Of a stretch of DNA of 24,000 bases, positions 9,696 through 22,857 are shown piece by piece. The position numbers and the translations under genes were made by a program. Position 1 is the first letter of the stretch. Each line of letters opens with the position of its first letter. Under the pieces are notes generated by a model. It saw only the letters and a list, made by a program, of their open reading frames with translations, was not told the origin of the DNA and did not search any database. Origin of the DNA: an uncultured Bacillales bacterium (GTDB taxonomy: Bacteria > Bacillota > Bacilli > Paenibacillales > KCTC-25726); the NCBI GenBank assembly GCA_964514665.1, contig CAZESH010000026.1, positions 1 to 24,000 on the forward strand. The letters run 5' to 3'.

Positions 9696-9783
9696 GGCTT
9701 AACTTCAAGATTTTTAGAAATTAGAAATAAATCCCGGTCAGTTTTTTCATAATGTTTGATGACAAGAATATGGGCCGATAAAT

Positions 9784-9806
9784 TCCGCGTAGATCGCGGA
9801 TTTTTT
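9784..9806 (+). terminator. Rho-independent terminator downstream of the PiT gene
   Basis: TCCGCG-tagat-CGCGGA followed by TTTTTTATTTT. Confidence 0.7.
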
Positions 9807-9814
9807 ATTTTAAA

Positions 9815-9856
9815 GGTATAAGTTCTTGTCGTTTGTTCGCGACAAGAACTTGTACC
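9815..9856. repeat. Long inverted repeat / hairpin (17 bp including one G-U)
   Basis: GGTATAAGTTCTTGTCG-tttgttcg-CGACAAGAACTTGTACC. The core is a 12-bp perfect complement (9820-9831 with 9840-9851). Confidence 0.6.
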
Positions 9857-10130
9857 TATTGTCGATGAAGCTAAAGAACTCACTTGAAAAATAATTGATT
9901 GGTTTTATTTTAATATGGCTTTTTCGTCTATACTTTCTACCTAAGGTTCTAGATGAAATTCGTCTAACAGCCCTCTGTTGGTGTATAGAAGAATTCGTTG
10001 AATAAGAGTTATACGAAATAAAGGCGAAGTCCAGAACCTGAAGAACATTCATAAATCGAAGATTTACAAAATCCTTCAGCCGGCTTGGCAGAAGGCCGCC
10101 GCTTTGTTTTATTCGGTCAAGATCAAGTTC

Positions 10131-10166
10131 AAAAACGAAAAAACCCTTCTACAAAGAAGAAGGGGG
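10131..10166 (-). terminator. Rho-independent terminator oriented on the minus strand, with no ORF upstream of it
   Basis: The minus strand reads CCCTTCT-tctttgt-AGAAGGG-TTTTTTCGTTTTT. Confidence 0.6.
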
Positions 10167-10170
10167 AACA

Positions 10171-10231
10171 CTCTACTATAAGGGACGCGAGGAGAAAATT
10201 CATTTTTGTATCGCGTCCCTTATTAGTAGAG
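10171..10231. repeat. About 20-bp inverted repeat / long hairpin
   Basis: CTCTACTATAAGGGACGCGA ... TCGCGTCCCTTATTAGTAGAG, with one extra base in the right arm and a 20-nt loop. Confidence 0.6.
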
Positions 10232-10248
10232 TAATCGATGATGTCATA

Positions 10249-11067
10249 TTGGAAATTGACACCATCGGAGCAGGCAATACATTAAAGGTTTCGGAAAACA
10301 GGAGGGAGAAATACCCTATTTACGATAAAGTTTGGTTTATGGATGAAATAAAAAAAATGTTTCCTAGTCATAAAATCGAGCATTTGGATACACTGGGGAA
10401 CGTAGCACTTTATCCTCACTTGTTAGGAATTGATGTTAAGATCTTAAATTTTCAACAAATAGGGGGGAAGTTCCTCAACATACTGATAAGGATGATTTAA
10501 ATTCAATTGATTGGGATGCATTAATTAAAATGATAAAAATTCATCTTTTTCCAACTACATAAACAGGAAACTTGTTAACACTTCACGAATACATTTTACA
10601 TCGCCATTATTGGCGAATTTCGCAGGAAATTCCCCGACATGGGCCCGAGGGCATGGATGAGAGAGGAAATTTTAAAAAAATATGATCTGGTTTCAAATGA
10701 AGAACGGGAAGAGAGAAATCAAAAATTCTTGCAGTTAATAACTATCAGAACTAGCGAACGCTTGAACTCTAACGTTTTAACAGAAAGTTGATACTCTAGT
10801 ACCCTGAAACAAAAATCGATTGAGCCGCAATCGATACGGCACATACTGGCCTCGTTATTTTTTCGGCGGCTAAAGCGATGGACCTCGATTTTGTTCCTTT
10901 AACATATGAATCATATGACTTGTTAATGAGCAGGGAGTTTTATGAAAGCGAAGGCGGGCGCTTGCTCATGTGAAATCATGAAATCGGAAGAGTTCATCAG
11001 GCAGGTAGAATATTTCGGCGGTTACAAACTATGCCGAACGGGAGAACCGATCAATATAAAGGAGTGA
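10249..11067 (+). pseudogene. Decayed gene for a PBP-like (molybdate-binding-type periplasmic-binding-fold) domain protein, of the kind usually fused to molybdopterin-biosynthesis or HTH modules
   Basis: The clearest part is the 3' end. Frame 0, 10824-10973, gives AAIDTAHTGLVIFSAAKAMDLDFVPLTYESYDLLMSREFYESEGGRLLM*. It continues after a +1 shift at 10972-11067 as EIMKSEEFIRQVEYFGGYKLCRTGEPINIKE*. Both fit the conserved C-terminus of PBP_like-domain proteins as I remember it. Upstream pieces (the 83-aa ORF at 10249-10500, then FPDMGPRAWMREEILKKY) fit more loosely and are broken by stops. Confidence 0.45.
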
Positions 11068-11074
11068 AAAATGA

Positions 11075-12100
11075 ATGAAGGATGACCAAGGTAAGATTTT
11101 TGATCATATGAATAGGCCCCTTCGTGACTTGCGGATCTCCGTGACTGACCGGTGCAACTTCCGTTGCCGGTATTGTATGCCGGAAGAGGTGTTCGGGCCA
11201 GACTACCGGTTTCTTCCTCCGAAGCAATTGCTGAGTTTTGAGGAAATCCAGCGGTTGACTCGTCATTTTGTGGCGTTGGGCGTCGAGAAAATCCGTATTA
11301 CCGGCGGAGAACCGCTACTGCGCAGGGACCTTTCCGTTTTGATCCGGATGATTCGAAACATAGACGGTGTCAAAGACATTGCTTTGACCACAAACGGTTC
11401 ATTGCTGGAACAGTTTGCGGGGGCACTCAAAGAGGCGGGATTAGACAGGTTGACGGTTAGTTTGGACAGTTTGGATGATGAACGTTTTGGACGCATTAAC
11501 GGAAGGGGTTTCAAGGTGGAGACGGTTCTGAGAGGAATTGAAGCGGCCGTCAATGCCGGGTTCTCCGTCAAAATCAATATGGTTGTACAAAAAGGCGTGA
11601 ATGACCAGGATATTCTCCCAATGGCCCGTCACTTTCGCGAAATGGGTCATATCGTGCGTTTTATCGAATACATGGATGTCGGAAACTGCAACGGATGGAA
11701 ACTGGAGCAAGTCATTCCCAGCAAAGACGTCGTCAGCATGATTGATGCGGAAATGCCTTTGGAACCGGTGGATCCGAACTATTATGGCGAAGTGGCCAAC
11801 CGCTACCGATACAAAGGAACGAATGAGGAGATTGGACTGATATCCTCTGTTACCCAAGCCTTTTGTTCCACCTGTACAAGAGTGCGTCTCTCTGCGGAAG
11901 GCGAATTGTACACCTGTTTGTTCGCTTCACAAGCATACGATTTGTGCAAGCCTCTCAGGGGAGGAGCCAGCGATGAAGAAATGATGGAAATCATTCATCA
12001 TGTCTGGAACAAGAGAGAAGACCGGTACTCGGAAATCCGTTTGCAGAACACAACAGGATTGAAGCGGCCTAAAGTGGAAATGTATCATATCGGGGGATAA
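11075..12100 (+). CDS. moaA: GTP 3',8-cyclase MoaA (radical SAM, molybdenum cofactor biosynthesis)
   Basis: [18 protein letters not shown] radical-SAM cluster motif, GGEPLLR, and C-terminal second-cluster cysteines [18 protein letters not shown]. 341 aa; GGAG lies 10 nt upstream. Confidence 0.95.
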
Positions 12101-12191
12101 CGTAGAAACTATTCATTTTTTATATTTAGTAGAGGTAGCGGATTATCTTTAAGCAAACTCGAGGAAGGCAATGACTTCGCCTGACATAGTA

Positions 12192-12240
12192 TTAGGCGAG
12201 CCAGATTTGACGCTTTCCAAAGCGCCTCAAAGCCTTATGT
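12192..12240 (+). repeat. Copy of a sequence motif also present, inverted, at 19409-19464
   Basis: TTAGGCGAGCC...TTTCCAAAGCGCCTCAAAGCCTTATGT compared with the reverse complement of 19409-19464, TTAGGCGAGCC...ATTCCCAAAATGCCGAAAAGCCTTATGT. That is 11/11 identical at one end and about 22/28 at the other by hand alignment; the centre is divergent. Confidence 0.45.
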
Positions 12241-12339
12241 GATTAAGCTTTTCTCGGATCGCTATATGGAATAAATCTTGTTTTTTAGGTTTCATATTAT
12301 GCACTTCCTATCGAGTTGAAATCACTGTCCCATTTCCTA

Positions 12340-13659
12340 TCATTTCACCGAAGATAATTTGACTTCATTTTCTTTTTCTCTTATCTTGTCAGTGGTTTTA
12401 ATGGATTTTATACGGATTAAGTAGATACCAAATCCAAAGGATAACCATATTAATCCTGAAAAAAATCCAGATCCTCCAACTGAAACAAGTAAACAAAGGC
12501 TAATAATTAAAGCCAAAGCCGGTAAATATGGATAAAATGGGGCTGAGAACTGCTTCGATCGTTCTTCAAAAGACACTTTTCTTCTTGAAATAAAAAAGGC
12601 GGTCATCGTAAAAATAAAAGTAAGCAAATACAAAAAACCAGTTGCATTTACGGCAATATTGATTGAACTTACGAGGGTAAACATAATTTGTATGCTTACC
12701 CCCAGCAAGATTGCCCAAACGGGAGTTTGAAATCGCGGATGAATCAAACCGATTTTTTTTGGTAAAAATCCATTACGCCCCATGGCAAAGGCAGTTCTCG
12801 AAATCGAGATGATAAACGCATTGGCTGTAGCGGGTAAAGCAATAACAATGACAATACTGATGAATGCCGGTCCAAAATCTCCCAAAAATTGTTGGCTGGC
12901 TAAAGCGACCGGTACTTTTGACAATCCAAGTTCCTGCCAAGGAACGACTCCTGTTGAAACGAATAAAAGACCGGAGTACAGAAAAAGTACGATGATAATG
13001 GATGATAAAATAGCCCTTGGAATGGTTTTACTCGGATTTTTCATTTCTTCCCCGGCATCAACAATCACATCCCAACCAACCATGGAGAGAAACCCGACTA
13101 ATGCCGCAGCTAGAATGCCCTCTAACCCATTAGGGGCAAACGGTGTATAGAATGAATAATTTACATGTCCAAATCCTAAAGCAAAAAACAAAAGGAGTAC
13201 GATGATTTCAACAATCACAATCCCCACTTGAACAACGCCACTAAACTTAATACCCAACATATTGAGAAGTCCTAAAACAAGAAGGAGGATAACCGAACTC
13301 AACAACGGAGGAGCATCCGTTAAGGAATGAAGGTAGTTACCAAATCCTTGTGAAACGAAGCTGCTTGCTGCAAGCCATGCTCCCCAATAGGACCATCCAA
13401 TTAACGTCCCGATAAGGGAACCCATCGTTTCACGCACATATTCATAAGCACCACCAGCTCTCGGGTATCTCGATGCTAATTCCGCGTAACATAATCCTAA
13501 TAAAATTTCTAAGATCGCCGCGATGACAAAAGCGAGCATCACAGCCGGACCTGCTTTTCCAGCTGCTACCCCACTAAGAATAAAAATACCCGCACCAACC
13601 ATAGCCCCAGTACCAAGAGAAGTAGCCTCTTTCCATCCTAAATCTCTTTTTAGGCTCAT
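12340..13659 (-). CDS. APC-superfamily amino acid permease
   Basis: 439 aa with about 12 TM segments. The N-terminal GTGAMVGAGIFILSG motif is typical of APC transporters. SD AAAGGAGA lies 6 nt upstream. Confidence 0.9.
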   Translation of the reverse strand: MSLKRDLGWKEATSLGTGAMVGAGIFILSGVAAGKAGPAVMLAFVIAAILEILLGLCYAELASRYPRAGGAYEYVRETMGSLIGTLIGWSYWGAWLAASSFVSQGFGNYLHSLTDAPPLLSSVILLLVLGLLNMLGIKFSGVVQVGIVIVEIIVLLLFFALGFGHVNYSFYTPFAPNGLEGILAAALVGFLSMVGWDVIVDAGEEMKNPSKTIPRAILSSIIIVLFLYSGLLFVSTGVVPWQELGLSKVPVALASQQFLGDFGPAFISIVIVIALPATANAFIISISRTAFAMGRNGFLPKKIGLIHPRFQTPVWAILLGVSIQIMFTLVSSINIAVNATGFLYLLTFIFTMTAFFISRRKVSFEERSKQFSAPFYPYLPALALIISLCLLVSVGGSGFFSGLIWLSFGFGIYLIRIKSIKTTDKIREKENEVKLSSVK

Positions 13660-13681
13660 ATTGTTCTCCTTTCATCAGATA

Positions 13682-14317
13682 CTAAAATTCTGTGACTTCA
13701 CCCGGCCTTTCTACAAAACCCCATTTCTTTAAGTCAACGATCCAATATTTTTTAGGACGAACTATACCATTGATATCGTATCCGGCACGTCGTTCCCATT
13801 CCCCAATTTGATATTCTTCGGTTATTTCCAATTGAGCCAAACCTTTTACGTTTTTGTAACCGTATTGTCCAAAATCAAATAGACGCAATGGATATCCTTG
13901 TTCCATGGGTAAAGGTTCTCCATCAACCGAATGAACAATCAACGTCCGCCTGGACAGGGCATCACCTAAAGGAATGGTAGATTCATAAACTCCTTTTTCC
14001 TTGGTTCCTATGCTCGTTTGCTTTAAATAATATTTTTCAGGATGGGATACCCCAGCCATTTCCATAATGTTTGATAACAATACACCTTTCCAAGTTCGAC
14101 GAATGCTCCAATTACAGACACAAACCATTCTTCTGCTTTCTTCCACTTGGGGCATTTCTAATAAATCTTGATAGGTAAAACTCAATTCTTTTTCTACTAA
14201 TCCAGTAACGGATAGACGCCATGTATTTAAATCAATGGATTTCGGTGGACCTTCCTGATAATATCGAAGGGAAGATGGCTTTCGATCTAAATTTGGAGTT
14301 TTTACCGTTGGATTCAC
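13682..14317 (-). CDS. Small molybdopterin-dependent oxidoreductase (sulfite-oxidase-fold Moco domain only; YuiH/MsrP-like)
   Basis: WRLSVTGLVEKELSFTYQDLLEMP...MVCVCNWS (candidate Mo-ligand Cys)...IVHSVDGEPLPMEQGYPLRLF, the typical Oxidored_molyb pattern. No twin-arginine or signal peptide is visible. GTG start lies after AAGGAGAG. Confidence 0.85.
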   Translation of the reverse strand: MNPTVKTPNLDRKPSSLRYYQEGPPKSIDLNTWRLSVTGLVEKELSFTYQDLLEMPQVEESRRMVCVCNWSIRRTWKGVLLSNIMEMAGVSHPEKYYLKQTSIGTKEKGVYESTIPLGDALSRRTLIVHSVDGEPLPMEQGYPLRLFDFGQYGYKNVKGLAQLEITEEYQIGEWERRAGYDINGIVRPKKYWIVDLKKWGFVERPGEVTEF

Positions 14318-14329
14318 GTTTCTCTCTCC

Positions 14330-15100
14330 TTAAATATTATTGATGACACAACGAAAACCAATTAAATTATCTCTTACTGAAACGGGATAATTATCTCTTG
14401 CTGTACATCTCATAAAATCCTCATTATGTAATCCACATCCACCTCTAACGATGTGATAATCTTCTTGTGACGTAAGATATATTGGATTCATTCCAGTTTT
14501 ATCCCATTCGTAATTAAGGGAAGCATTGTCCAAACACCACTCTGCTAGATTACCAGCCATATCTAAGCATCCAAAAAAGGATTTATTCTTTGGAAATGCG
14601 TAAACAGAGGTTGAGCTGCGGTTCAATTCTTCGGGATCGCAGTCAACAGCATAGTTTGCATATTCAGGAGTTGGTTCTTCGTTTCCCCACGGGTATTTTC
14701 GTTGATCGGTACCCTTACATGCATACTCCCACTGTGCTTCAGTCGGCAAGGTCTTGCCTACAAAGGTAGCAAAGGCCATGGCCTCCCACCAATTGACTCC
14801 TGTTACCGGATGATCATCTTGGTTAAAATGGTCATCAAACCAATAGTTTGGATATTTAATGTTGTTAGTTTGAATATACTCCCATCCTTTTGGAAGCCAA
14901 AATTCTGGTTTTTGATATCCTCCGTCTTCTACAAATACCCGGAATTGCTTATTGGTTACTGGCGTTTTGTCGATAGCAAAAGCGTTTAAGGTAACCAATT
15001 TAACTGGTTGTTCGTCCGGTGATTCGTTACTACCACGAAGAAAAGTCCCATCTGGAATAATGATCATATGATCTAATTCATTTTTTACCTGATTACTCAT
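14330..15100 (-). CDS. FGE-sulfatase-fold protein (SUMF1/EgtB/PvdO family)
   Basis: MIIIPDGTFLRGS..., HPVTGVNWWEAMAFATFVGKTLPTEAQWEYACKG, YPWGN, DMAGNLAEWCLD, RGGCGL...RCTARDNYP...IGFRCV. All canonical blocks of the family are present. Confidence 0.85.
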   Translation of the reverse strand: MSNQVKNELDHMIIIPDGTFLRGSNESPDEQPVKLVTLNAFAIDKTPVTNKQFRVFVEDGGYQKPEFWLPKGWEYIQTNNIKYPNYWFDDHFNQDDHPVTGVNWWEAMAFATFVGKTLPTEAQWEYACKGTDQRKYPWGNEEPTPEYANYAVDCDPEELNRSSTSVYAFPKNKSFFGCLDMAGNLAEWCLDNASLNYEWDKTGMNPIYLTSQEDYHIVRGGCGLHNEDFMRCTARDNYPVSVRDNLIGFRCVINNI

Positions 15101-15115
15101 ATTAGATTCCCCCCG

Positions 15116-15529
15116 TTACCTAAGAAGCCCCATACTTCCGGTCAGTTTATTGACTTTTTTCTTGTCTCCATATAAAGCCAATCCTAAATATTCAAGGTCA
15201 TTTTCTGAAAAGGTCGCTATTTTTTCGGTATATTCCTCATAATTTTTTGTTATTTGTGCTGCATTACTAAAGTCGACAACCAGTAAATCTGAAAATTCTT
15301 CAGCGTATAACCTATTCCTTAACTCTTTAATGGTTAAAGCATCCCCCTTTAAAATCGGAACAGGAGTTGTTGTTATTCCTACATGAAAGCGGCCACTTCC
15401 ATCCTCTACCGCAGGACCAATAATCTCCTCAATTTCCTTTCCTAAAGTGAGAGCTAACACCGCAGCAGTATTGGCAATTAATCCTGTTGGTAAATTTACA
15501 TCAATAACCATCACACATTTCATTTCCAT
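15116..15529 (-). CDS. DUF2000 family protein (PTH2-like fold family, function unknown)
   Basis: MKCVMVIDVNLPTGLIANTAAVLALTLG...LVVDFSNAAQ...YLGLALYGDKKKVNKLTGSMGLLR matches my recollection of DUF2000 proteins in size (137 aa) and motifs. SD GGAGG lies 7 nt upstream. Confidence 0.7.
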   Translation of the reverse strand: MEMKCVMVIDVNLPTGLIANTAAVLALTLGKEIEEIIGPAVEDGSGRFHVGITTTPVPILKGDALTIKELRNRLYAEEFSDLLVVDFSNAAQITKNYEEYTEKIATFSENDLEYLGLALYGDKKKVNKLTGSMGLLR

Positions 15530-15547
15530 GATTTTTCCTCCATTTTG

Positions 15548-16204
15548 TTAATGCTTGAACGATACTATCGTTGATTTGGTACCAAAAACGGACCATAACA
15601 TTAAAATCGTACGTGTCGGCGAAATGAATTCCGCATTATATTTTTGGGCAGCATTAGCCGTGGTTAAACAAAGATCCACCTCTCCTTTCTGCAATTTGAC
15701 AGCCGCTTCACTTGTCGAATTAACAAACAATATCTCATATTTGATATCGAAATCAGCTAAGAACCAAGGAAGAAGACTCGAGGGAGCATGATGGGTAGCG
15801 ACAACCAAAGGACGGCTCCTGTTCAATTTTTCATGAGGTCTTTTTGCTACTCCATATAACGGTGTTTCAAAAATAAATGGAAATAAAAATTGGATATCTT
15901 TCGACATGTAAAATTTATCTATTCCCTTATAAGCATTAGCGACAAGAAGGACATTGGATACCCCTGAGACCAAGCTTTCATAAGCTTCTTCATAGGAAGG
16001 AAAAAGGGAATACTTCCCATGCTCATCTTTTAACGTTGTGAGCAAGAATTTGGCCGATGCTTCGCTACTTGTCCCAGAAGGGCCCAGAGTAGCAATTTCA
16101 ACTTGTTCTAAAAATAATAAAGAGGATAAAAATTGTTGATTCCAGTTGGAAAAGATAAGATTCTGTACCCTAGTCTGAGTATTAACAGTCACTATTTGCA
16201 CCAC
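15548..16204 (-). CDS. BacA-like prephenate decarboxylase (non-aromatizing member of the prephenate dehydratase superfamily)
   Basis: 218 aa with no ACT domain. IATLGPSGTSSEASAK, VANAYKGIDKFYM, ETPLYGVAKRP, VNSTSEAAVKLQKG, TTANAAQKYNAEF and MLWSVFG align block for block with B. subtilis BacA as I recall it (INTLGPEGTSSEYAAK, VPHAYDGIKHFYM, DTPMYGLAVRP, VNSTSAAAKRVKDG, NELARQKYGLQF, MSWSLFG). The start is uncertain: GTG at 16204/16201 has a poor SD. Confidence 0.75.
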   Translation of the reverse strand: MVQIVTVNTQTRVQNLIFSNWNQQFLSSLLFLEQVEIATLGPSGTSSEASAKFLLTTLKDEHGKYSLFPSYEEAYESLVSGVSNVLLVANAYKGIDKFYMSKDIQFLFPFIFETPLYGVAKRPHEKLNRSRPLVVATHHAPSSLLPWFLADFDIKYEILFVNSTSEAAVKLQKGEVDLCLTTANAAQKYNAEFISPTRTILMLWSVFGTKSTIVSFKH

Positions 16205-16284
16205 CTATATCCATCAAAGTTAGGTAAACCTCCATTTTCCAATATGTGTAATTCCTTTTCCCATTTATAATTTAGCATGATAAA

Positions 16285-16331
16285 ATGGTAGGGATAAGGA
16301 CCAATTATTATAGATTTTTATAGTACCAATT
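16285..16331. promoter_or_regulatory. Candidate MocR operator repeats in the divergent promoter region
   Basis: Direct repeat GGACCAATT (16298-16306) / GTACCAATT (16323-16331), 25 bp start to start. An inverted ACCA-type half site, ATGGTAG, lies at 16285-16291. TTATAG is repeated at 16308 and 16318. Confidence 0.3.
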
Positions 16332-16350
16332 TGAAAAAAGGGGAAAATGT

Positions 16351-17425
16351 ATGTTTTGGATTGATCGAACACTAGATATACCTTTAATACGACAAGTTTA
16401 CGAACAAATTCGCACACGAATTTTACATGGGGAGCTTGTTGCCGGGGAATGCCTTCCACCTACCCGAGAACTGGCTTCCCATCTAGGGATATCTCGGAAT
16501 GTGGTGGTAGAAGCTTATGAACAATTATTAGCAGAAGGATATATTGAAGGACGCCAAGGTTCCGGAACGTATGTTGCAGAGGGAGCCTATTTGGATCAAC
16601 AGGAGAAAACGGATTACCTCTCTTTTTTTGAAATGCAGCAAGAAGAAATACATGATTTCATTGATTTTCGATCAGGGATCCCTGCTTTAGATATGTTTCC
16701 AAGACATATATGGGGACAAATCGCTAAACAAGTCTGTATTGAAACTTCACAATCTGTATTTGGTTATGGTTATCCTGAAGGAAGAAGGGAATTGCGTCAT
16801 ATCTTGTCTCGATATCTAAAAAGAACAAGAGGAGTTCATTGCCATTCGGATCAGTTGGTTATTACATCTGGAGCCACACAAGCTTTATCTCTTATTGCAA
16901 ACTTACTACTTTCACCAGGAGATGAGGTAATCATCGAAGATCCGATTACGCACGAAATTCAGACCATTTTTTCTTCCCCGGGATCAGTACTTTATCCTAT
17001 ACCTGTGGACGAACAAGGAATGAAAACAGATTTAATCCCCCAAAATAAAAAGCCTAGCTTTATTTTTGTCACTCCATCTCATCAATTTCCGCTCGGGGGG
17101 ACGTTACCTGTTCAACGCCGGATTCAGCTAATTCAATTTGCCAGAACAGCTGATTGCTTTATTGTAGAAGATGATTATGACAGCGAATTTCGTTATCAAG
17201 GAGCTCCTATTAATTCACTGCAGGGTCTCGACCCAAAGAGGGTAATTTATATTGGAACATTCAGCAAAATATTGTCACCTGCACTCAGACTAGGGTACTT
17301 AATTCTCCCTCCTTCCTTAACGAAACGTTGTAAAGATCTAAAATGGTTCATGGATCTTCATACTCCTTCATTACAACAACTTACCCTTGCGCGTTTTATT
17401 GATGAGGGACACCTGGAACGTCATA
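16351..17425 (+). pseudogene. MocR/GabR-type regulator (GntR wHTH plus fold-type-I aminotransferase-like domain), 5' portion, interrupted by an IS
   Basis: wHTH region LPPTRELASHLGISRNVVVEAYEQLLAEGYIEGRQGSGTYV. The aminotransferase-like domain has the PLP-Lys motif YIGTFSKILSPALRLGY. The reading frame runs into IS sequence after ...IDEGHLERH. Confidence 0.85.
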
Positions 17426-17495
17426 TGATGCTAGACTAAATAGTAGACACAGATTACACTGATAAAACAACTAGTATCGGAGGACTGTGTCAACA

Positions 17496-17780
17496 ATGAA
17501 AAAACCTCTCTATGATGAAGCGTACAAAAAGAAGACAGTTCAGTATATCAAGGAAAGCGGGAAGGCGGTGGCGGCAGTAGCCCGTGAGTTGAAGATCAAG
17601 GACAACACGTTGTATGGCTGGATGAAGAAGTTCGGCAACGAGCCGGAAATCGCTCAACACCAAGCGTTTAAGTCAGAAGATCATCAATTACGGGAAATGC
17701 AAAAACAAATACGTGAACTGCAAGAGGAGAACGAAATCTTAAAAAAGGCCATGCACTTCTTCGCGAAAGACCGTCGGTAA
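17496..17780 (+). CDS. IS3-family transposase OrfA (HTH plus leucine-zipper part)
   Basis: MKKPLYDEAYKKKTVQYIKESGKAVAAVARELKIKDNTLYGWMKKF...LQEENEILKKA. GGAGG lies 12 nt upstream of ATG 17496; the ORF track starts at GTG 17487. Confidence 0.85.
   Translation: MKKPLYDEAYKKKTVQYIKESGKAVAAVARELKIKDNTLYGWMKKFGNEPEIAQHQAFKSEDHQLREMQKQIRELQEENEILKKAMHFFAKDRR
17741..17747 (+). promoter_or_regulatory. Programmed -1 ribosomal frameshift heptamer A-AAA-AAG
   Basis: In the orfA frame the codons are TTA AAA AAG. A -1 slip enters the orfB frame and gives ...KKGHALLRERPSVKYEFIHEYRSEYRLEKLCNVMNVSRSGY, a typical OrfAB junction. Confidence 0.7.
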
Positions 17781-17827
17781 AATATGAATTCATTCACGAA
17801 TACCGCTCCGAGTACCGACTGGAGAAG

Positions 17828-18652
17828 TTGTGCAACGTAATGAACGTATCTCGCAGCGGATACGACAAATGGAAAGATCGCCCTGAGAGCGAACGCGAGA
17901 GTCAACACAAAGAATGGACTGAGCAAGTCAAGAAAGTCTTTGAGGAATCTCGCCAGCTCTACGGAAGCCCCAAGGTCACGCAAAAGCTATATCAGCAAGG
18001 AGTGAATGTGTCCGAGCGGACAGTCACACGCATTATGCACGAGCAACGGTGGCGATCTCGAACGGTGAAAAAGTACAAGGCTACAACAAACTCAAAACAT
18101 AACCTGCCGGTTCACGAGAATGTGCTGAATCAGGAATTTACAGCCTGTAAGCCAAACGAAAAATGGGTGACAGACATCACTTACATTCCTACAGCGGAGG
18201 GCTGGCTTTACCTGGCGAGCGTGATGGATCTATACTCCCGTAAGATCGTTGGATGGCATATGAGTGACAGGATGACGAAAGAGCTTGTGCTGCAGGCTCT
18301 ACAGCAGGCTCACGGTCGCCAGCAACCAGAAGGTGAGGTGCTCCACCATTCTGATCGCGGGAGTCAATACGCCTCTCACGACTATCAAAAGCAACTTCAA
18401 ATCTATTCGATGAAAGGCAGTATGAGCCGTAAGGGAAATTGTTACGATAACGCTTGTATCGAGTCGTTTCACAGCATCATTAAGAAAGAGCTTATTTATT
18501 TGAACAAGTACCAGACGCGTGAGGAAGCCCAAAAGAGCATCTTCGAATACATTGAAGTATTTTACAATAACCAACGCATTCACTCGTCTATCCAATATCT
18601 TACACCCGACGACTTTGAATGCAAATACTACGTTAGTGTAGTAAAGCAATAA
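17828..18652 (+). CDS. IS3-family transposase OrfB (DDE/rve integrase core), expressed as an OrfAB fusion by frameshift
   Basis: DDE motifs WVTDITYI, HHSDRGSQYAS and CYDNACIESFHSIIKKE. The frame is -1 relative to orfA and is open from about 17747. Confidence 0.9.
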   Translation: MCNVMNVSRSGYDKWKDRPESERESQHKEWTEQVKKVFEESRQLYGSPKVTQKLYQQGVNVSERTVTRIMHEQRWRSRTVKKYKATTNSKHNLPVHENVLNQEFTACKPNEKWVTDITYIPTAEGWLYLASVMDLYSRKIVGWHMSDRMTKELVLQALQQAHGRQQPEGEVLHHSDRGSQYASHDYQKQLQIYSMKGSMSRKGNCYDNACIESFHSIIKKELIYLNKYQTREEAQKSIFEYIEVFYNNQRIHSSIQYLTPDDFECKYYVSVVKQ

Positions 18653-18683
18653 AATTTGTGTCTACTATCTTGACAGAGGTCCA

Positions 18684-19009
18684 ATATTAGAAAAATGAAA
18701 AAAATATATAAAACACGTCGGGATCACGTAAAAAAATGCTTGTTAAAAGAATTTGGTACTCAAGTCAGTGTTGCAGGTGATTCAACAGGTCTGCATTTGA
18801 TTGCTGAATTTGATAACATAGTATTTTCAGATGAAATCATAAATGAAATACTTAATGAACATAAGGTGAAAATTTATCCAGTGGAACTGCATACTATTCG
18901 AAAAGGCACACATCAAAACAAAGTAATATTAGGTTATGGGAATCTGACGACAGAGGAAATAGAAGAAGGTATCCATAGGTTAAAATTAGCCTTTATGCCA
19001 AACAAGTAG
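18684..19009 (+). pseudogene. MocR/GabR-type regulator, 3' portion downstream of the IS
   Basis: (I)RKMKKIYKTRRDHVKKCLLKEFGTQVSVAGDSTGLHLIAEF... is the conserved C-terminal segment of MocR proteins. Joining 17425 to 18687 restores ...LERH-IRKMKKIY... in frame, giving about 465 aa in total. Confidence 0.85.
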
Positions 19010-19577
19010 GAATGAGTTAAGCAATGGCTCTTCGCCATTTAGTGTGGGAAATGAGTTATAGATCAAATCATTGACGGCTTGACATGGATCCTCTGCAGGT
19101 ATGATTCCTTACTCAAGCCCGAAGCCGAAAAAGGTTTCGCCAGGCCAGGCTCACCAGCCTATCATGCCCACCTCTCCATGTAGGGGTTTCGCCAACAAAT
19201 CGCGGAAAACGTACGCTAAGTAGACGAAGCCAGCAAAATCGACGCTTTTCCGTCCTCCTTTGGAAGTTAGGCGCGGAAGAAAGTTAGGCGAGACTGGAGG
19301 GGGTTTCCCTCGTCTATCTCAGCGATAGACGAGGGAAACTAACTTTGCTTAAATCGGCAGGATATCTGCGCTCTCTGGAAAAAACTCCATCCTTGAAACC
19401 TCTTGAAACATAAGGCTTTTCGGCATTTTGGGAATGTCCGTTCGCTTCATCCCGGCTCGCCTAACACCACATTCACGCTACGGGCCTTACGGCCCTTGGT
19501 CTGCCCGATGGATTTCGAACAAGTGGAATCATGTAGACAACGCTGCACTGGCTAACCTCCTACTTGGGCGCCTGAGC
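19010..19577 (-). other. Non-coding, highly structured region; possible 5' fragment of a degenerate group II intron
   Basis: There is no credible ORF. After a terminator the minus strand reads GCTCAGGCGCCCAAGTAGGAGGTTAGCCAGTGCAG, which resembles the Ll.LtrB intron 5' end as I remember it (GTGCGCCCAGATAGGGTGTTAAGTCAAGTAG), although the initial GUG is not intact. Other structure: a GNRA-capped hairpin GGGCC-GUAA-GGCCC (19482-19495), a 16-bp perfect hairpin (19303-19339), and a 10-nt long-range complement (19283-19292 with 19456-19465). No reverse transcriptase ORF or domain V was found. Confidence 0.35.
19303..19339. repeat. Perfect 16-bp inverted repeat with a 5-nt loop
   Basis: GTTTCCCTCGTCTATC-tcagc-GATAGACGAGGGAAAC. 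No T-run follows it. Confidence 0.7.
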
Positions 19578-20047
19578 AAAAAAAGGTACCGCCTCAGCGA
19601 TACCTTTCATATTCTCCATCGTATCCAAGTCCAGCACGGTTCCTTCATCTTCGGTACCAATACATGTTCGTAGGCATGTTTCATAATCGTTTTGGCACCA
19701 ACGTCACCTTTCAGTTCGGAGAAATGGACGAGCATCGACCTGGAAAAAAACACGGGATGCCCTTTTTGCTCCCGGAAAATCGGCTGGATCACCCGTTTTA
19801 TGTTGGGGTCCGCAGGTTTCTGCGCCTCATTTAATACACATTCGATCGTTCCGGACGCAATAAAAGGCTGATCGGACAAAAAAATAAGCATCCCGAGCGT
19901 GGAATCGGGGCAGCGTTCGCCGACAACGCGGGGATTGCGGATTTCGGCTCGTTTGCCTTTTTGAAAAAGATCCAGCCAGCTCCCAGACTGGTTGTATTCA
20001 GCGCGGGTTCGCTTTGACATTCCTGCAGCTAAGATGACCGCCCGACC
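19560..20047 (-). pseudogene. MocA/MobA-like nucleotidyltransferase (molybdenum cofactor cytidylyltransferase type), probably decayed
   Basis: - The N-terminal motif AVILAAGMSKR follows the xdhC stop in frame with no start codon.
- Only about 42 residues separate it from the LSDQP motif; I estimate about 90 in intact MocA-like proteins, so a segment appears to be missing.
- The conserved middle part is QPIFREQKGHPVFFSRSM...LKGDVGAKTIM.
- The expected C-terminus EDEGTVLDLDTMENMK... lies in another frame, with a shift near 19650-19660. Confidence 0.55.
19578..19607 (-). terminator. Candidate rho-independent terminator on the minus strand at the end of the mocA-like frame
   Basis: The minus strand reads AAAGGTATC-gctgaggc-GGTACCTTT-TTTT. 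The stem is 6-9 bp (one G-U) followed by a T7 run. Confidence 0.4.
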
Positions 20048-21100
20048 TTACACATGGATTTTCGTTCGGCCGTGAAGGGACCTGCCAGTGCTGCCGTTAC
20101 GGACCATCATCAGTTCAGATATGATACTTACAGCTACTTCTTCAATTGTCTCGGCACCTAAATCAAGTCCGATTGGGGCGTGCAGAGGGCCGCTCGATAG
20201 ATTGGCTCCGATGTTTGAAAGCATTTCTTGAGTGCGGGACTGGGGGCCTAACACACCAATAAAGCGCGGGTTGCTTTTTAACGCTAGCGCCAAAGAAGCT
20301 TCATCTCGACTCTGCTGGTGGTTCATGATGACCCACCAACTATCGTTAAAAGCAACAGGGTCTGCTTCATTGGGTTCAACGACGATATGCGATGAAGCGG
20401 CCGGAAAACGAAGTCCATTATTAAAGTCTTTACGGGGATCTAATACGGTTACGCAAAATCCCACTTGCGCAGCAACAGAAACGAGAGGTACTGCATCATG
20501 GCCGGCACCCGCTATAACCAATTGTTCACTGGGTCTCATGGTATCAATTACAAACCGGCGATTTCCGAGGGAGATAACTTCTGCACGCGTTCGTTGGAAG
20601 ATCCGATCCAATGCTTGCTGGCGAACTTCGTCTGGAAGCAGAGCCAGATCACCCCATCCATTCCCGTTCGGATCAATCAAGAAGCGAACGCCTGTCGGAA
20701 TTTCGAGGATCAACGAAATGGGACGATCTTCTTGTATAACGGTTATGGCTGTTTGCCAGAAGCTATCGTTGGGAACGACAGGAATAATCAAGATCTCCAA
20801 GGATCCTTTACAACCGATACCTAAACTCCATAACTCATTTTCACTAAGATCATATTGTCTTGTTAGAGGGATGGTTTGACAAATTGCTTCTTTTGACCAT
20901 TCAAACAAATCATTCTCCAAACAACCGCCGCTCAATGTACCAAACATTTGTCCGTCCGTTGACATCATCATCTTGGCGCCAGGTTGGCGGTAAGCCGACC
21001 CAGACACCTCAGTAATCATCAATAAACATGTTTTTTGATTGCTTTCCCAGGCTTGTTTTATTTTTTGTGTGACATCTCGTGCTTCTTGAATGCGCGACAA
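20048..21100 (-). CDS. xdhC: XdhC/CoxI-family molybdoenzyme maturation (Moco insertion) accessory protein
   Basis: N-terminal XdhC_CoxI-like region (SGSAYRQPGAKMMM...GTLSGGCLE) and a C-terminal Rossmann-like domain (LVIAGAGHDAVPLVSVAAQVGFCVTVLDPR). TTG start lies 7 nt after AAGGAGGG. Confidence 0.85.
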   Translation of the reverse strand: MSRIQEARDVTQKIKQAWESNQKTCLLMITEVSGSAYRQPGAKMMMSTDGQMFGTLSGGCLENDLFEWSKEAICQTIPLTRQYDLSENELWSLGIGCKGSLEILIIPVVPNDSFWQTAITVIQEDRPISLILEIPTGVRFLIDPNGNGWGDLALLPDEVRQQALDRIFQRTRAEVISLGNRRFVIDTMRPSEQLVIAGAGHDAVPLVSVAAQVGFCVTVLDPRKDFNNGLRFPAASSHIVVEPNEADPVAFNDSWWVIMNHQQSRDEASLALALKSNPRFIGVLGPQSRTQEMLSNIGANLSSGPLHAPIGLDLGAETIEEVAVSIISELMMVRNGSTGRSLHGRTKIHV

Positions 21101-21151
21101 GATTGCTCCCTCCTTAACTGATTAATTAGCTCTCGGCATAGCCGAATATTG

Positions 21152-21187
21152 AAACCTCAAGGTTTAGTCCATGAGGTTTTTTCTGTT
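21152..21187 (+). terminator. Terminator-like hairpin in the xdhC/coxM divergent intergenic region (function unclear)
   Basis: AAACCTCA-12 nt-TGAGGTTT followed by TTTCTGTTT. No plus-strand gene ends upstream of it. Confidence 0.3.
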
Positions 21188-21428
21188 TAAATCTATCAGC
21201 AAGATAGCATCCGTCAAAATAAAAATAATTTTCAGTTAATTATATTCATATAGTGGCCGTTATAACATATTCAAGAATAAAATATTTATTGACTTCAATC
21301 GATGGCTACGTGATGTCCAACCATTGACGAAATTTTAATATTCTAATTCTTCAATTTTTGCCATATAAAATAATAAATTCATAATAGTATAATTTATTTT
21401 TTAATAAGCAGGGAGGGATGATCATTTT

Positions 21429-22295
21429 ATGATTCCAAATTCATTTGACTATTACTCACCAACAACAGTGGAAGAAACGATTGAATTACTGCAGAAATAC
21501 GGTTACGATGCAAAAATTTTGGCGGGTGGCCAAAGTTTGCTGCCCATGATGAAGCTGCGCGTTGCGATGCCGTCAGTTTTGGTTGATATCAATCATATTG
21601 ACGATTTGCATGGCTGGCGTGAAGAGAATGGCTATTTACGAATAGGGGCATTGACGAAACATGCCGATCTCGAAAATGAATTTCATCTGAATGAGCGCTA
21701 CCCGCTTTTATCGAGAACGGCAGAATGGATTGCGGACGTACCCGTTCGAAATCGGGGTACAATTTGCGGCTCTCTTGTCCATGCAGATCCCGGTTCTGAC
21801 TGGGGAGCGGCAATAATTGCCCTGCATGCGGATGTTGAGGTGACCGGTCCGTCTGGAGTACGGCGGGTTTTTATCGATGATTTTTTTGTCGACACATTCA
21901 CGACATCGCTTGAGAACGATGAGATTGCATCGGCGGTATTGATCCCCTCCCCGATAGGCCGTACTGGGGCACGCTATATGAAGTTAGAACGTAAAGCAGG
22001 AGATTTTGCGATTGTTGGAGTCGCGTTACATGTTATCAAAGCAAGTGATGGAACCATTCTGGATGTCGGCATCGGCTTATCCGCATGCGGCGATATCCCT
22101 GTTCGGGCAAAAAAGGCTGAAGATTGGTTAATGGGGCGTCCTTTAGATAAGGAAACGATTAAACAGGCTTCGCTTTTGGCCCAGGAAGATGCGAATCCGG
22201 CTACGGATCTGAGAGGCAGTGCAGAGTACAAACGAGACCTGGTAAGAGTGTTTGTAAAGCGAGGGCTTGAAGAAATTGCAGATGAACTCCGTTAG
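21429..22295 (+). CDS. coxM: Aerobic CO dehydrogenase / xanthine-dehydrogenase-family FAD-binding medium subunit
   Basis: ILAGGQSLLPMMKLR FAD-binding motif and a C-terminal CO_deh_flav_C-type region (DLRGSAEYKRDL). 288 aa. Confidence 0.9.
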   Translation: MIPNSFDYYSPTTVEETIELLQKYGYDAKILAGGQSLLPMMKLRVAMPSVLVDINHIDDLHGWREENGYLRIGALTKHADLENEFHLNERYPLLSRTAEWIADVPVRNRGTICGSLVHADPGSDWGAAIIALHADVEVTGPSGVRRVFIDDFFVDTFTTSLENDEIASAVLIPSPIGRTGARYMKLERKAGDFAIVGVALHVIKASDGTILDVGIGLSACGDIPVRAKKAEDWLMGRPLDKETIKQASLLAQEDANPATDLRGSAEYKRDLVRVFVKRGLEEIADELR

Positions 22296-22344
22296 TTTCG
22301 CTTGCTGCCTATCCATAAATTAAACCGGGAGGGACAATTATTTT

Positions 22345-22857
22345 ATGCAGATGAGTGTAACTGTAAACGGACGTGTTTATGAATCGGATGTCGAGCCCCG
22401 TACGTTGCTTGTCTACTATCTCAGGGAGCAACTAAGACTGACGGGTGCGCATGTCGGATGTGATACGACATCTTGCGGAGCGTGCACCGTGTTATTAAAT
22501 GGAAGGGCGGTTAAATCTTGTACAGTGTTGGCGGTACAAGCGAACGGACAAGAAATCATGACGGTAGAAGGACTCGAACGTGACGGTGAGCTGCATCCTT
22601 TGCAAAAAGCATTTTGGGAAGAGCATGGCCTCCAATGTGGGTATTGCACGCCGGGAATGCTCATGTCAGCCTGTGAACTGTTGGAACGAAATCCTTTTCC
22701 TACAGAGGAGGAAGTTCGTAGAGGGATATCCGGAAATCTATGTCGATGCACAGGTTATGTGAACATCATAAAAGCAATCCAATCAGCAGGACGTCACATC
22801 GCCGGGCAAGACAAGGAAGCCAAGCACCAATCGGAGGTGGTTCCCAGTGGCAATTAA
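22345..22857 (+). CDS. coxS: Aerobic CO dehydrogenase-family [2Fe-2S] small subunit
   Basis: Two cluster motifs: [12 protein letters not shown] and CGYCTPGM...CRCTGY. 170 aa. Confidence 0.9.

Follow-up and report, generated by a model that had tools for sequence, protein, structure and literature searches.

A recurrent operon that joins a BacA-like prephenate decarboxylase to DUF2000, FGE-like and molybdopterin proteins in an uncultured Bacillales bacterium

We have studied a stretch of 24,000 nucleotides (the window) from an uncultured Bacillales bacterium, positions 1 to 24,000 of contig CAZESH010000026.1 in assembly GCA_964514665.1. It contains an operon of five tightly packed, co-directional open reading frames (ORFs) on the minus strand, in positions 12340–16204. 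They correspond, in this order, to a BacA-like prephenate decarboxylase (gene 1), a DUF2000 protein (gene 2), a protein with the fold of the formylglycine-generating enzyme (FGE; gene 3), a small oxidoreductase with the molybdenum cofactor (Moco; gene 4) and an APC-superfamily amino acid transporter (gene 5). The operon is real and has been horizontally acquired. Its first four genes are the conserved unit, the core, found in the same order in at least 21 loci of four phyla; the permease and the regulator are interchangeable accessories. Its architecture is new, but it belongs to a class which is known, that of the amino acid pathways based on a prephenate decarboxylase. The operon is not categorically new, since the entry enzyme, the exporter logic and a sister cluster for dihydrophenylalanine (DHP) are already known. 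On balance we favour a role in the biosynthesis and export of a prephenate-derived, amino-acid-like metabolite, probably an antimetabolite of phenylalanine or tyrosine.

In species-representative genomes we found 152 relatives of gene 1, whose best 80 loci were analysed; about 100 loci were sampled in all. Co-occurrence of the five genes in other genomes had been set beforehand as one of three tests of the first-pass annotation of this DNA, and it was found widely. The other two, a match to a characterised cluster (as far as the literature searched goes) and a PheA-type gene 1, did not refute the annotation either. The whole arrangement, with a MocR regulator divergent from the decarboxylase, DUF2000, FGE-like, Moco and APC genes, is present in Bacillus aquiflavi, B. 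siamensis, Salipaludibacillus, Metabacillus, Avamphibacillus, Scopulibacillus, Robertmurraya and Cytobacillus. The four-gene core is also found in cyanobacteria (Baaleninema, Calothrix), actinomycetes (Amycolatopsis, Actinophytocola, Streptomyces), Betaproteobacteria (Solimicrobium, Caballeronia, Rhodoferax, Paraburkholderia), Xenorhabdus, Vibrio and an abundant metagenomic lineage. As the same order recurs across phyla, the gene set is no chance juxtaposition. The accessories vary: the transporter beside the core is APC in Bacilli, LysE in Proteobacteria and EamA in actinomycetes, and the regulator is either MocR or AraC. Some lineages have additional genes. In Actinophytocola a class II DAHP synthase directly follows the Moco gene, and in Baaleninema a methyltransferase is added to the core. 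A HisC-type aminotransferase (353 bits, cut-off 277) is the terminal sixth gene in B. aquiflavi, B. siamensis, Metabacillus and Robertmurraya; it is not found in the operon of the window.

We call F-type the clusters similar to that of the window and D-type those of the DHP kind. Among the best 80 of the 152 relatives, 11 loci are complete F-type clusters and 2 more end at a contig edge; 43–45 are of the DHP type, with Dabb, DUF2000, a PaaK-like ligase, a class IV aminotransferase and OCD. Of 45 D-type loci, 42 have the ligase and the class IV aminotransferase, which all 11 F-type loci lack. The F-type must be much commoner than 11 in 80, because the FGE-like family is large (over 1100 clusters at 90% identity; the best 120 matches are all at least 51% identical to gene 3) and because the scan with gene 1 missed the more divergent proteobacterial decarboxylases. 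In two Bacilli the genes appear to be damaged: Robertmurraya sp. P23 (L014, 9257–11320) and Scopulibacillus daqui (L011, 9625–11521) have apparently fragmented or shortened decarboxylase, FGE-like and/or Moco genes, which suggests that the cassette is decaying in some lineages.

The layout of the operon agrees with the first-pass annotation, which had described five minus-strand ORFs 12–22 nt apart: the gaps from gene 1 to gene 5 are 18, 15, 12 and 22 nt. Strong Shine-Dalgarno (SD) sites had also been claimed for four genes, and they are found upstream of genes 2–5 (GGAGG, GGGGGG, AGGAGAG and AGGAGA respectively). For gene 1 a weak site had been reported at GTG 16204/16201; we find none there. 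The likelier start of this gene is the GTG at 16192, which has AGGTGG upstream at a spacing of 8 nt and from which the 214-aa NCBI call (P0001) also begins. About 100 nt upstream of gene 1, inside the 146-bp intergenic region which separates the operon from the MocR gene, a consensus scan gives a promoter-like site on the minus strand (TTCAAA, 17 nt, TATAAT; 16307–16335), with 10 of 12 matches; it is a pattern match only.

A peculiarity of the operon is its base composition. It had been described as low in GC, and the contrast is stronger than was claimed: its GC content is 0.392, and at third codon positions (GC3) it has 0.29–0.35, as compared with 0.43–0.60 in the flanking genes. From this contrast we delimit a compositional island at about 12.1–19.0 kb (12101–19009) which comprises the operon and the MocR gene, with GC 0.387 when the insertion sequence described below is left out and GC3 0.28–0.35 against 0.43–0.60 in the flanks. 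The genes which flank the operon are not the same in any related genome. All five structural genes are full length when compared with their orthologues and retain the family-invariant residues.

Gene 1 (15548–16204, minus strand) is clearly, as judged from its sequence, a member of the BacA/AerD/SalX/Plu3043 family of non-aromatizing prephenate decarboxylases. The BacA-like assignment previously given to it is supported by the retention of 30 out of 30 positions conserved in at least 97% of 87 family members, true BacA included. The invariant motifs of the family are TLGPxGTSSE, NAY, TPxYG, HxxP, STSxAA and MxWSxF. Its identity is 36% with BacA from a bac operon (L079) and 43% with the Photorhabdus-type enzyme of the DHP cluster; between these two the identity is only 33%, so that each is closer to gene 1 than to the other. 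The first reference was accepted as a bac operon because its BacC and BacD pass the respective equivalog cut-offs, the second lies in a Photorhabdus locus beside homologues of plu3041 and plu3042 from the published DHP cluster. Homologues of gene 1 carry the labels BacA or prephenate decarboxylase. It has a single PDT-like domain of 214–218 aa, a length similar to BacA, and no ACT domain was detected. The five family assignments of the first-pass annotation hold for genes 2–5, which pass the curated profile cut-offs; gene 1 fails with Pfam PDT (PF00800: E = 0.14, 12.4 bits, cut-off 25.2). It also fails with the PheA model NF008865 (E = 0.0013, 17.9 bits, cut-off 219), and neither the single sequence nor the family profile matched any solved structure. 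The characterised members of the family make precursors of anticapsin and DHP, and all of them are biosynthetic. We know of no residue-level signature which separates aromatizing from non-aromatizing prephenate enzymes. Decarboxylation of prephenate without aromatization is nevertheless the very probable activity of gene 1.

Several known systems share this entry enzyme. The bacilysin operon bacABCDEF(G) has a homologous first enzyme (L079) and is found in a Bacillus host group. Its logic is also alike, with a class I/II aminotransferase, a transporter and an exported antimetabolite amino acid as product. It differs from the operon of the window by its BacB cupin, its BacC and BacG short-chain dehydrogenases and its BacD ligase, and it has no DUF2000, FGE-like or Moco gene. 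The usual partners of BacA had been reported as absent from the window. This is true for BacB, BacC, BacD and BacG, since the five proteins are all assigned to other families, but DUF2000 is itself a usual partner, as we will discuss below. A tblastn search with BacB, BacC and BacG from L079 found none of them in the scanned F-type loci; BacB-like genes appear only in L079 and in Hormoscilla (L084), a BacA-family locus with a BacB/AerE-like cupin. Aeruginosins contain the Choi unit, and AerD of this pathway belongs to the same decarboxylase family. The cyanobacterial AerD/AerE/AerF pathway differs by its cupin, its reductase and its destination in a non-ribosomal peptide synthetase. The cassette locus of B. 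siamensis has none of the bac partner genes; this species belongs to the bacilysin-producing group of Bacillus, and its bac operon was not located here.

The DHP cluster plu3041–3043 (Photorhabdus, Erwinia, Pseudomonas, Streptomyces), whose product is an exported phenylalanine antimetabolite, shares with the window a 43% identical decarboxylase and DUF2000, and it has a LysE/EamA exporter. It differs by its PaaK-like ligase, IlvE-type class IV aminotransferase, OCD/mu-crystallin and Dabb proteins; in their place the window has the pair of FGE-like and Moco genes. In Photorhabdus luminescens (L045, 5862–12087) the DHP operon is preceded by Dabb and DUF2000 and is accompanied further on by CMD, OCD/mu-crystallin and LysE genes. 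This extended set recurs in about 40 Streptomyces, Pseudomonas, Vibrio and Erwinia-like loci, which suggests that more genes belong to the DHP cluster than the three usually cited. No characterised cluster with the gene set of the window was found in the literature searched, whose coverage is incomplete, in agreement with the earlier statement that no such characterised pathway was known to its author. Nor was there anything relevant in papers on MocR regulons and vitamin B6. Under the same incomplete coverage there was nothing relevant on DUF2000, on a pairing of FGE-like and Moco genes or on a prephenate decarboxylase associated with formylglycine.

Gene 2 (15116–15529, minus strand) codes for a DUF2000 protein (Pfam PF09391: E = 1.3e-45, 155 bits, cut-off 25) with a fold similar to peptidyl-tRNA hydrolase 2 (PTH2). 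Its structure model has a pLDDT of 90. The top Foldseek match is 2GAX (TM 0.86), followed by the archaeal PTH2 structures 1RLK, 2ZV3 and 1XTY, with probability 1.0 and a target TM of 0.57–0.66. The relationship with PTH2 is structural only, since the sequence profile reaches 2GAX alone and no PTH2. In our judgement K4, D86 and the C-terminal LTG..LL recall the motifs of PTH2. DUF2000 is a usual partner of BacA-type enzymes and no odd extra: it is present in 56 of the 80 loci, DHP clusters included, and in Photorhabdus it lies directly upstream of the plu3041–3043 homologues. It is accessory, since the other 24 loci do without it.

DUF2000 is also found in smaller associations. A minimal module, MocR divergent from DUF2000 and APC genes, without decarboxylase, FGE-like or Moco genes, is present in Firmicutes (L095–L099), namely in Schinkia azotoformans and in a metagenome lineage which appears in 497 data blocks. 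Its proteins are orthologous to those of the window: MocR is 70–72% identical, DUF2000 65–67% and APC 68–70%. Sometimes it includes a class V aminotransferase. In Alkaliphilus metalliredigens (L092) the permease of the module is in fragments. The persistence of MocR, DUF2000 and APC in the absence of the other genes resembles that of orphan resistance genes. In Clostridiales metagenome contigs (L093/L094, 4389–6423) we find a different situation: DUF2000 lies directly downstream of pdxS-pdxT, with a chorismate mutase–shikimate kinase fusion 3 kb upstream. A connection of DUF2000 with pyridoxal phosphate (PLP) is possible, given these neighbours and the score of the window MocR above the PdxR cut-off. 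We also considered DUF2000 as a substitute for the BacB isomerase and rejected this role. BacB-like cupins are found only in two loci which lack DUF2000, a compatible distribution, but 22 other loci have neither of them and complementarity is not established.

Gene 3 (14330–15100, minus strand) codes for a stand-alone protein of 256 aa with the fold of FGE and of the EgtB C-terminal domain (Pfam PF03781: E = 8.7e-60, 203 bits, cut-off 23.3). It falls below all NCBIfam cut-offs: it is far short of the EgtB model (129.7 bits instead of 360) and of SenA (112.9 instead of 420), as it is also the case with OvoA. Foldseek matches it to EgtB, OvsA and FGE with probability 1.0 and also to ToxD; by sequence its closest solved relatives are OvsA (2.3e-28) and EgtB (4.1e-26). 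The first-pass annotation had described an enzyme of the FGE/EgtB/PvdO fold. The fold is confirmed, but the catalytic residues of FGE and EgtB are absent. In the alignment with 2aft, His225 takes the place of Cys336 of human FGE and there is a gap at Cys341, so that both copper-binding catalytic cysteines of SUMF1/FGE are missing; in addition gene 3 is cytoplasmic and has no sulfatase nearby. The region of EgtB Tyr377 also corresponds to a gap. The C-terminal FGE-like fold is shared with EgtB, OvoA, OvsA and SenA, but these proteins have the catalytic tyrosine region and a DinB domain, which is not present in gene 3. In EgtB and OvoA the iron ligands are located in DinB. Single-domain FGE-fold proteins are found in natural-product clusters, namely ToxD of toxoflavin and CalU17 of calicheamicin, but their similarity to gene 3 is low (E about 1e-18) and they have no Moco partner. 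The family of gene 3 conserves residues of its own: C189, H225 and C251 never vary, C154 and H216 are found in at least 90% of the members, and to these are added several conserved acidic and aromatic positions. Most of these residues lie in or beside loops modelled with low confidence, with pLDDT below 50 at 149–154 and 220–245. Gene 3 therefore has the fold but falls in no characterised catalytic family.

Gene 4 (13682–14317, minus strand) is predicted to be a molybdopterin oxidoreductase of 211 aa with the sulfite oxidase fold, similar to YedY/MsrP (Pfam PF00174: E = 1e-33, 116.7 bits, cut-off 24). It had been annotated as a small cytoplasmic enzyme of this kind, which agrees with the profile match, with the retained molybdenum-ligand cysteine and with the absence of an export signal: its N-terminus, MNPTVKTPNLDRKPSS, has no RR motif and no obvious signal. 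It scores 68.1 bits with MsrP, whose cut-off is 207, and also misses the cut-off of SoxC, as well as those of all other equivalog models. Cys66 aligns with the molybdenum-ligand cysteine in the motif R-C-V-E-A-W-S of YedY (1xdq) and is invariant in 18 orthologues, as is the motif R-R-x-V-C-V-C-x-W-S; a motif G-x-P-x-R-L...K is conserved as well. Gene 4 thus has the Oxidored_molyb domain, the ligand cysteine and this last motif in common with MsrP/YedY, but it differs by its size, by the lack of a twin-arginine signal, of a dimerisation domain and of the MsrQ haem partner, and by the C-V-C sequence at the molybdenum site. No MsrQ-like gene was found in any related locus examined, and there is no haem partner. 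In codons 64–70 (14108–14128, V-C-V-C-N-W-S) a second invariant cysteine, C68, stands where YedY has Glu; the C66-V-C68 sequence might provide a thiol-based recycling route for a cytoplasmic enzyme without a haem partner.

The FGE-like and Moco genes are never found apart and never without DUF2000. This is the case for all 11 complete loci of the scan and for four other loci (L088–L091). In at least four lineages the stop codon of the FGE-like gene and the start codon of the Moco gene overlap by 4 nt. Two apparent fusions of both genes were rejected: P0106 passes from the C-terminus of the FGE-like protein directly into the central part of the Moco protein, without the molybdenum-ligand region, as expected from an internal deletion or a chimeric call, and P0136 is a fragment which reads through the intergenic SD site.

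Gene 5 (12340–13659, minus strand) is an amino acid transporter of the APC superfamily, as had been proposed: it passes the curated cut-off of AA_permease_2 (2.2e-53) and matches TIGR00909 with 1.8e-84, under the cut-off of this model. Its relatives include importers such as BcaP. The divergent MocR gene, with GntR and aminotransferase-fold (Aminotran_1_2) domains, is also present as predicted, but the first-pass annotation missed that it is disrupted by an insertion sequence (IS) of the IS3 family. The N-terminal 358 codons (16351–17425, plus strand) match positions 1–350 of the 448-position PdxR-type model, with 397 bits and a cut-off of 320; there are no adjacent pdx genes. The C-terminal remnant (18684–19009, plus strand) matches positions 353–453 of MocR-type models; intact orthologues have 465–478 aa. 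The element in between (17426–18683, plus strand) contains orfA (17487–17780) and orfB (17828–18652), with HTH_Tnp_1 and rve domains, inverted repeats of 16 nt which are 94% complementary (17440–17455/18653–18668) and TG...CA ends. It has duplicated a 3-bp target, ATA (17423–17425 and 18684–18686). Excision of the element together with one copy of ATA restores the MocR frame (...LERH-IRKMKK...), and for this reason the insertion looks recent. The split regulator is presumably non-functional, and expression of the operon would be either lost or deregulated. The arrangement is that of known MocR regulons (GabR, PdxR, TauR, EhuR): a divergent regulator with GntR and aminotransferase-fold domains, an operon with a transporter and, in the relatives, a PLP enzyme. 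The target genes of the window operon are not described in the survey of MocR regulons.

With these components we propose the following pathway. In a first step gene 1 would turn prephenate into dihydro-4-hydroxyphenylpyruvate, as BacA and Plu3043 do, and family membership makes this very probable. The cyclohexadienyl intermediate could then be tailored by the FGE-like and Moco proteins, an obligate pair which may constitute a two-subunit redox enzyme; for this second step the chances look evenly balanced. Its chemistry would be neither of the FGE nor of the EgtB type as they are currently understood, to judge from the residues of gene 3. Transamination would then give the amino acid, by the HisC-type enzyme in the relatives and by a housekeeping aminotransferase in this species. 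Finally the APC transporter would export the product; we consider the outward direction rather probable. MocR would sense the amino compound. For DUF2000 we can offer a speculative and rather doubtful role, a hydrolase for self-protection, which could for instance remove the analogue from mischarged tRNA. The idea comes from the association with a family of enzymes for toxic analogues, from the fold similar to a tRNA-ester hydrolase, from the fact that a transporter and a sensor are retained along with it, and from its persistence after the biosynthetic genes have been lost.

Several points weigh against this pathway. Its product, its activity and the expression of this type of cluster are deduced from the genes. 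Gene 3 has none of the known sets of catalytic residues and its conserved loops are modelled poorly, so it could be a non-catalytic binding subunit. Both apparent fusions of the FGE-like and Moco genes are artefacts. DUF2000 is absent from 24 of the 80 BacA-family loci, DHP-like ones among them, and its adjacency to pdxS/pdxT in Clostridiales is not accounted for by the idea of self-protection. The APC permease and the MocR regulator of the Bacilli clusters are both typical of uptake and catabolic operons (GabR, TauR, EhuR), and the module of MocR, DUF2000 and APC could equally be a unit for uptake and conversion. With its regulator disrupted, the copy in the window may be silent.

The last point leads to the alternative which survives best, although we find it unlikely: the cassette of the window would be a decaying, non-functional horizontal acquisition. 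The split of MocR by an IS3 element which still has its intact target duplication agrees with it, as do the absence of the HisC-type sixth gene and the location in a compositional island; decay is also apparent in relatives, in the fragmented cassettes of Robertmurraya and Scopulibacillus and in the degraded permease of Alkaliphilus. However the five structural genes are full length and keep their invariant residues, the SD sites and the promoter-like site are intact and, should MocR be a repressor, the operon would be de-repressed without it.

Somewhat less probable is a pathway in the opposite direction. The APC transporter would import an external amino compound, possibly a cyclohexadienyl or aromatic amino acid analogue from other organisms, MocR would sense it and the enzymes would convert or neutralise it, either in catabolism, in salvage or in detoxification. 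MocR regulators typically govern how amino compounds are used, importers such as BcaP are found among the APC relatives, and an orthologous module of MocR, DUF2000 and APC exists without any biosynthetic enzyme. On the other hand prephenate is an intracellular intermediate and no nutrient. Outside Bacilli the core is coupled to LysE and EamA exporters and to AraC regulators, in one lineage it is clustered with DAHP synthase, and the characterised relatives of gene 1 are all biosynthetic. The exporters, the DAHP synthase and these relatives are the reason why we prefer a biosynthetic direction: the first-pass annotation had considered that the operon may either make or degrade an amino acid, and the exporters and the DAHP synthase favour making and exporting it, with degradation less favoured.

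A sulfur-containing product, which had also been suggested, has no specific support, as gene 3 has neither the catalytic residues of FGE nor those of EgtB. The corresponding alternative is a thiol or selenol chemistry similar to that of EgtB/OvoA: a C–S bond and a sulfoxide would be formed on the ring, and reduction by the Moco protein would yield a sulfur amino acid. It would explain why OvsA and EgtB are the closest solved relatives of gene 3, why gene 4 resembles the sulfoxide reductase MsrP/YedY with its ligand cysteine retained, and why both genes are inseparable. But we consider it improbable: the DinB domain is missing, there is a gap at the catalytic tyrosine of EgtB, the scores are far below the EgtB, SenA and OvoA cut-offs, the core has no conserved cysteine-supplying enzyme or C–S lyase, and the extra aminotransferase is of the HisC type. 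It is most improbable that gene 1 acts as a common prephenate dehydratase with aromatization, or is a mere ligand-binding protein with a periplasmic-binding-protein fold, so that the cluster would be unrelated to non-aromatizing prephenate chemistry. The faint PheA and PDT matches, the only direct ones, and a family profile which finds no solved structure could suggest it; but gene 1 lacks an ACT domain, does not pass the models of PDT and PheA, is as short as BacA, keeps every family-invariant residue within the BacA/Plu3043 family, is nearer to BacA and to the Plu3043 type than these are to each other, and is present in B. siamensis at a locus without bac partner genes.

The biosynthesis and export of an amino-acid-like metabolite, the reading we favour, would have wider consequences. 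BacA-type decarboxylases are the entry to anticapsin, dihydrophenylalanine, the Choi unit and cyclohexenylalanine, and the F-type is a third cluster architecture around them, widespread in Bacillaceae, cyanobacteria, actinomycetes, Burkholderiales, Xenorhabdus and Vibrio. Under our reading a function would be assigned for the first time to DUF2000, to the large 'orphan' clade of FGE-fold proteins and to the small cytoplasmic enzymes with the sulfite oxidase fold, and the recurrent module of MocR, DUF2000 and permease in Firmicutes would be explained. A more ambitious version, which as a whole we hold to be unlikely, would combine all its parts. The core would be a widespread pathway for a secreted antimetabolite or signal, and the FGE-like and Moco proteins a new two-subunit molybdenum enzyme, which acts on a cyclohexadienyl substrate and in which a subunit with the FGE fold stands in for the DinB, haem or MsrQ partners of known systems. 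DUF2000 would be an immunity enzyme with the PTH2 fold, perhaps a trans-editing deacylase of tRNA that carries the analogue, and non-producers would retain it, along with the transporter and MocR, as an orphan module for resistance. The operon is compact, five genes in 4 kb, and therefore amenable to heterologous expression.

The island is flanked by genes with functions related to Moco. On one side there is MoaA (11075–12100), on the other side (19607–22857) a MobA-like ORF, XdhC and the FAD-binding and 2Fe-2S subunits of an enzyme of the xanthine dehydrogenase/CO dehydrogenase type. The adjacency of the operon to these genes may be coincidental, as its relatives have other flanks. Rfam and tRNA scans gave no match to a leader RNA or riboswitch in the window, and a search of PLSDB with blastn gave no match which would indicate that the operon is carried by a plasmid. 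Two homologues in B. methanolicus (P0050/P0313, with an FGE-like protein 88% identical) are annotated as plasmid-borne, one of them under the name 'NirV'; PLSDB has no DNA match for them. Upstream of moaA there are 1.4 kb (9700–11070) with GC 0.36–0.38 and short ORFs only, devoid of family matches; no Moco riboswitch was found there by Rfam at its gathering threshold. The 600-bp stretch at 19010–19606, beside the MobA-like ORF, has no convincing ORF. The MobA-like ORF itself (19607–20020, minus strand) covers only positions 88–157 of the 160-position NTP_transf_3 profile and is possibly a truncated gene.

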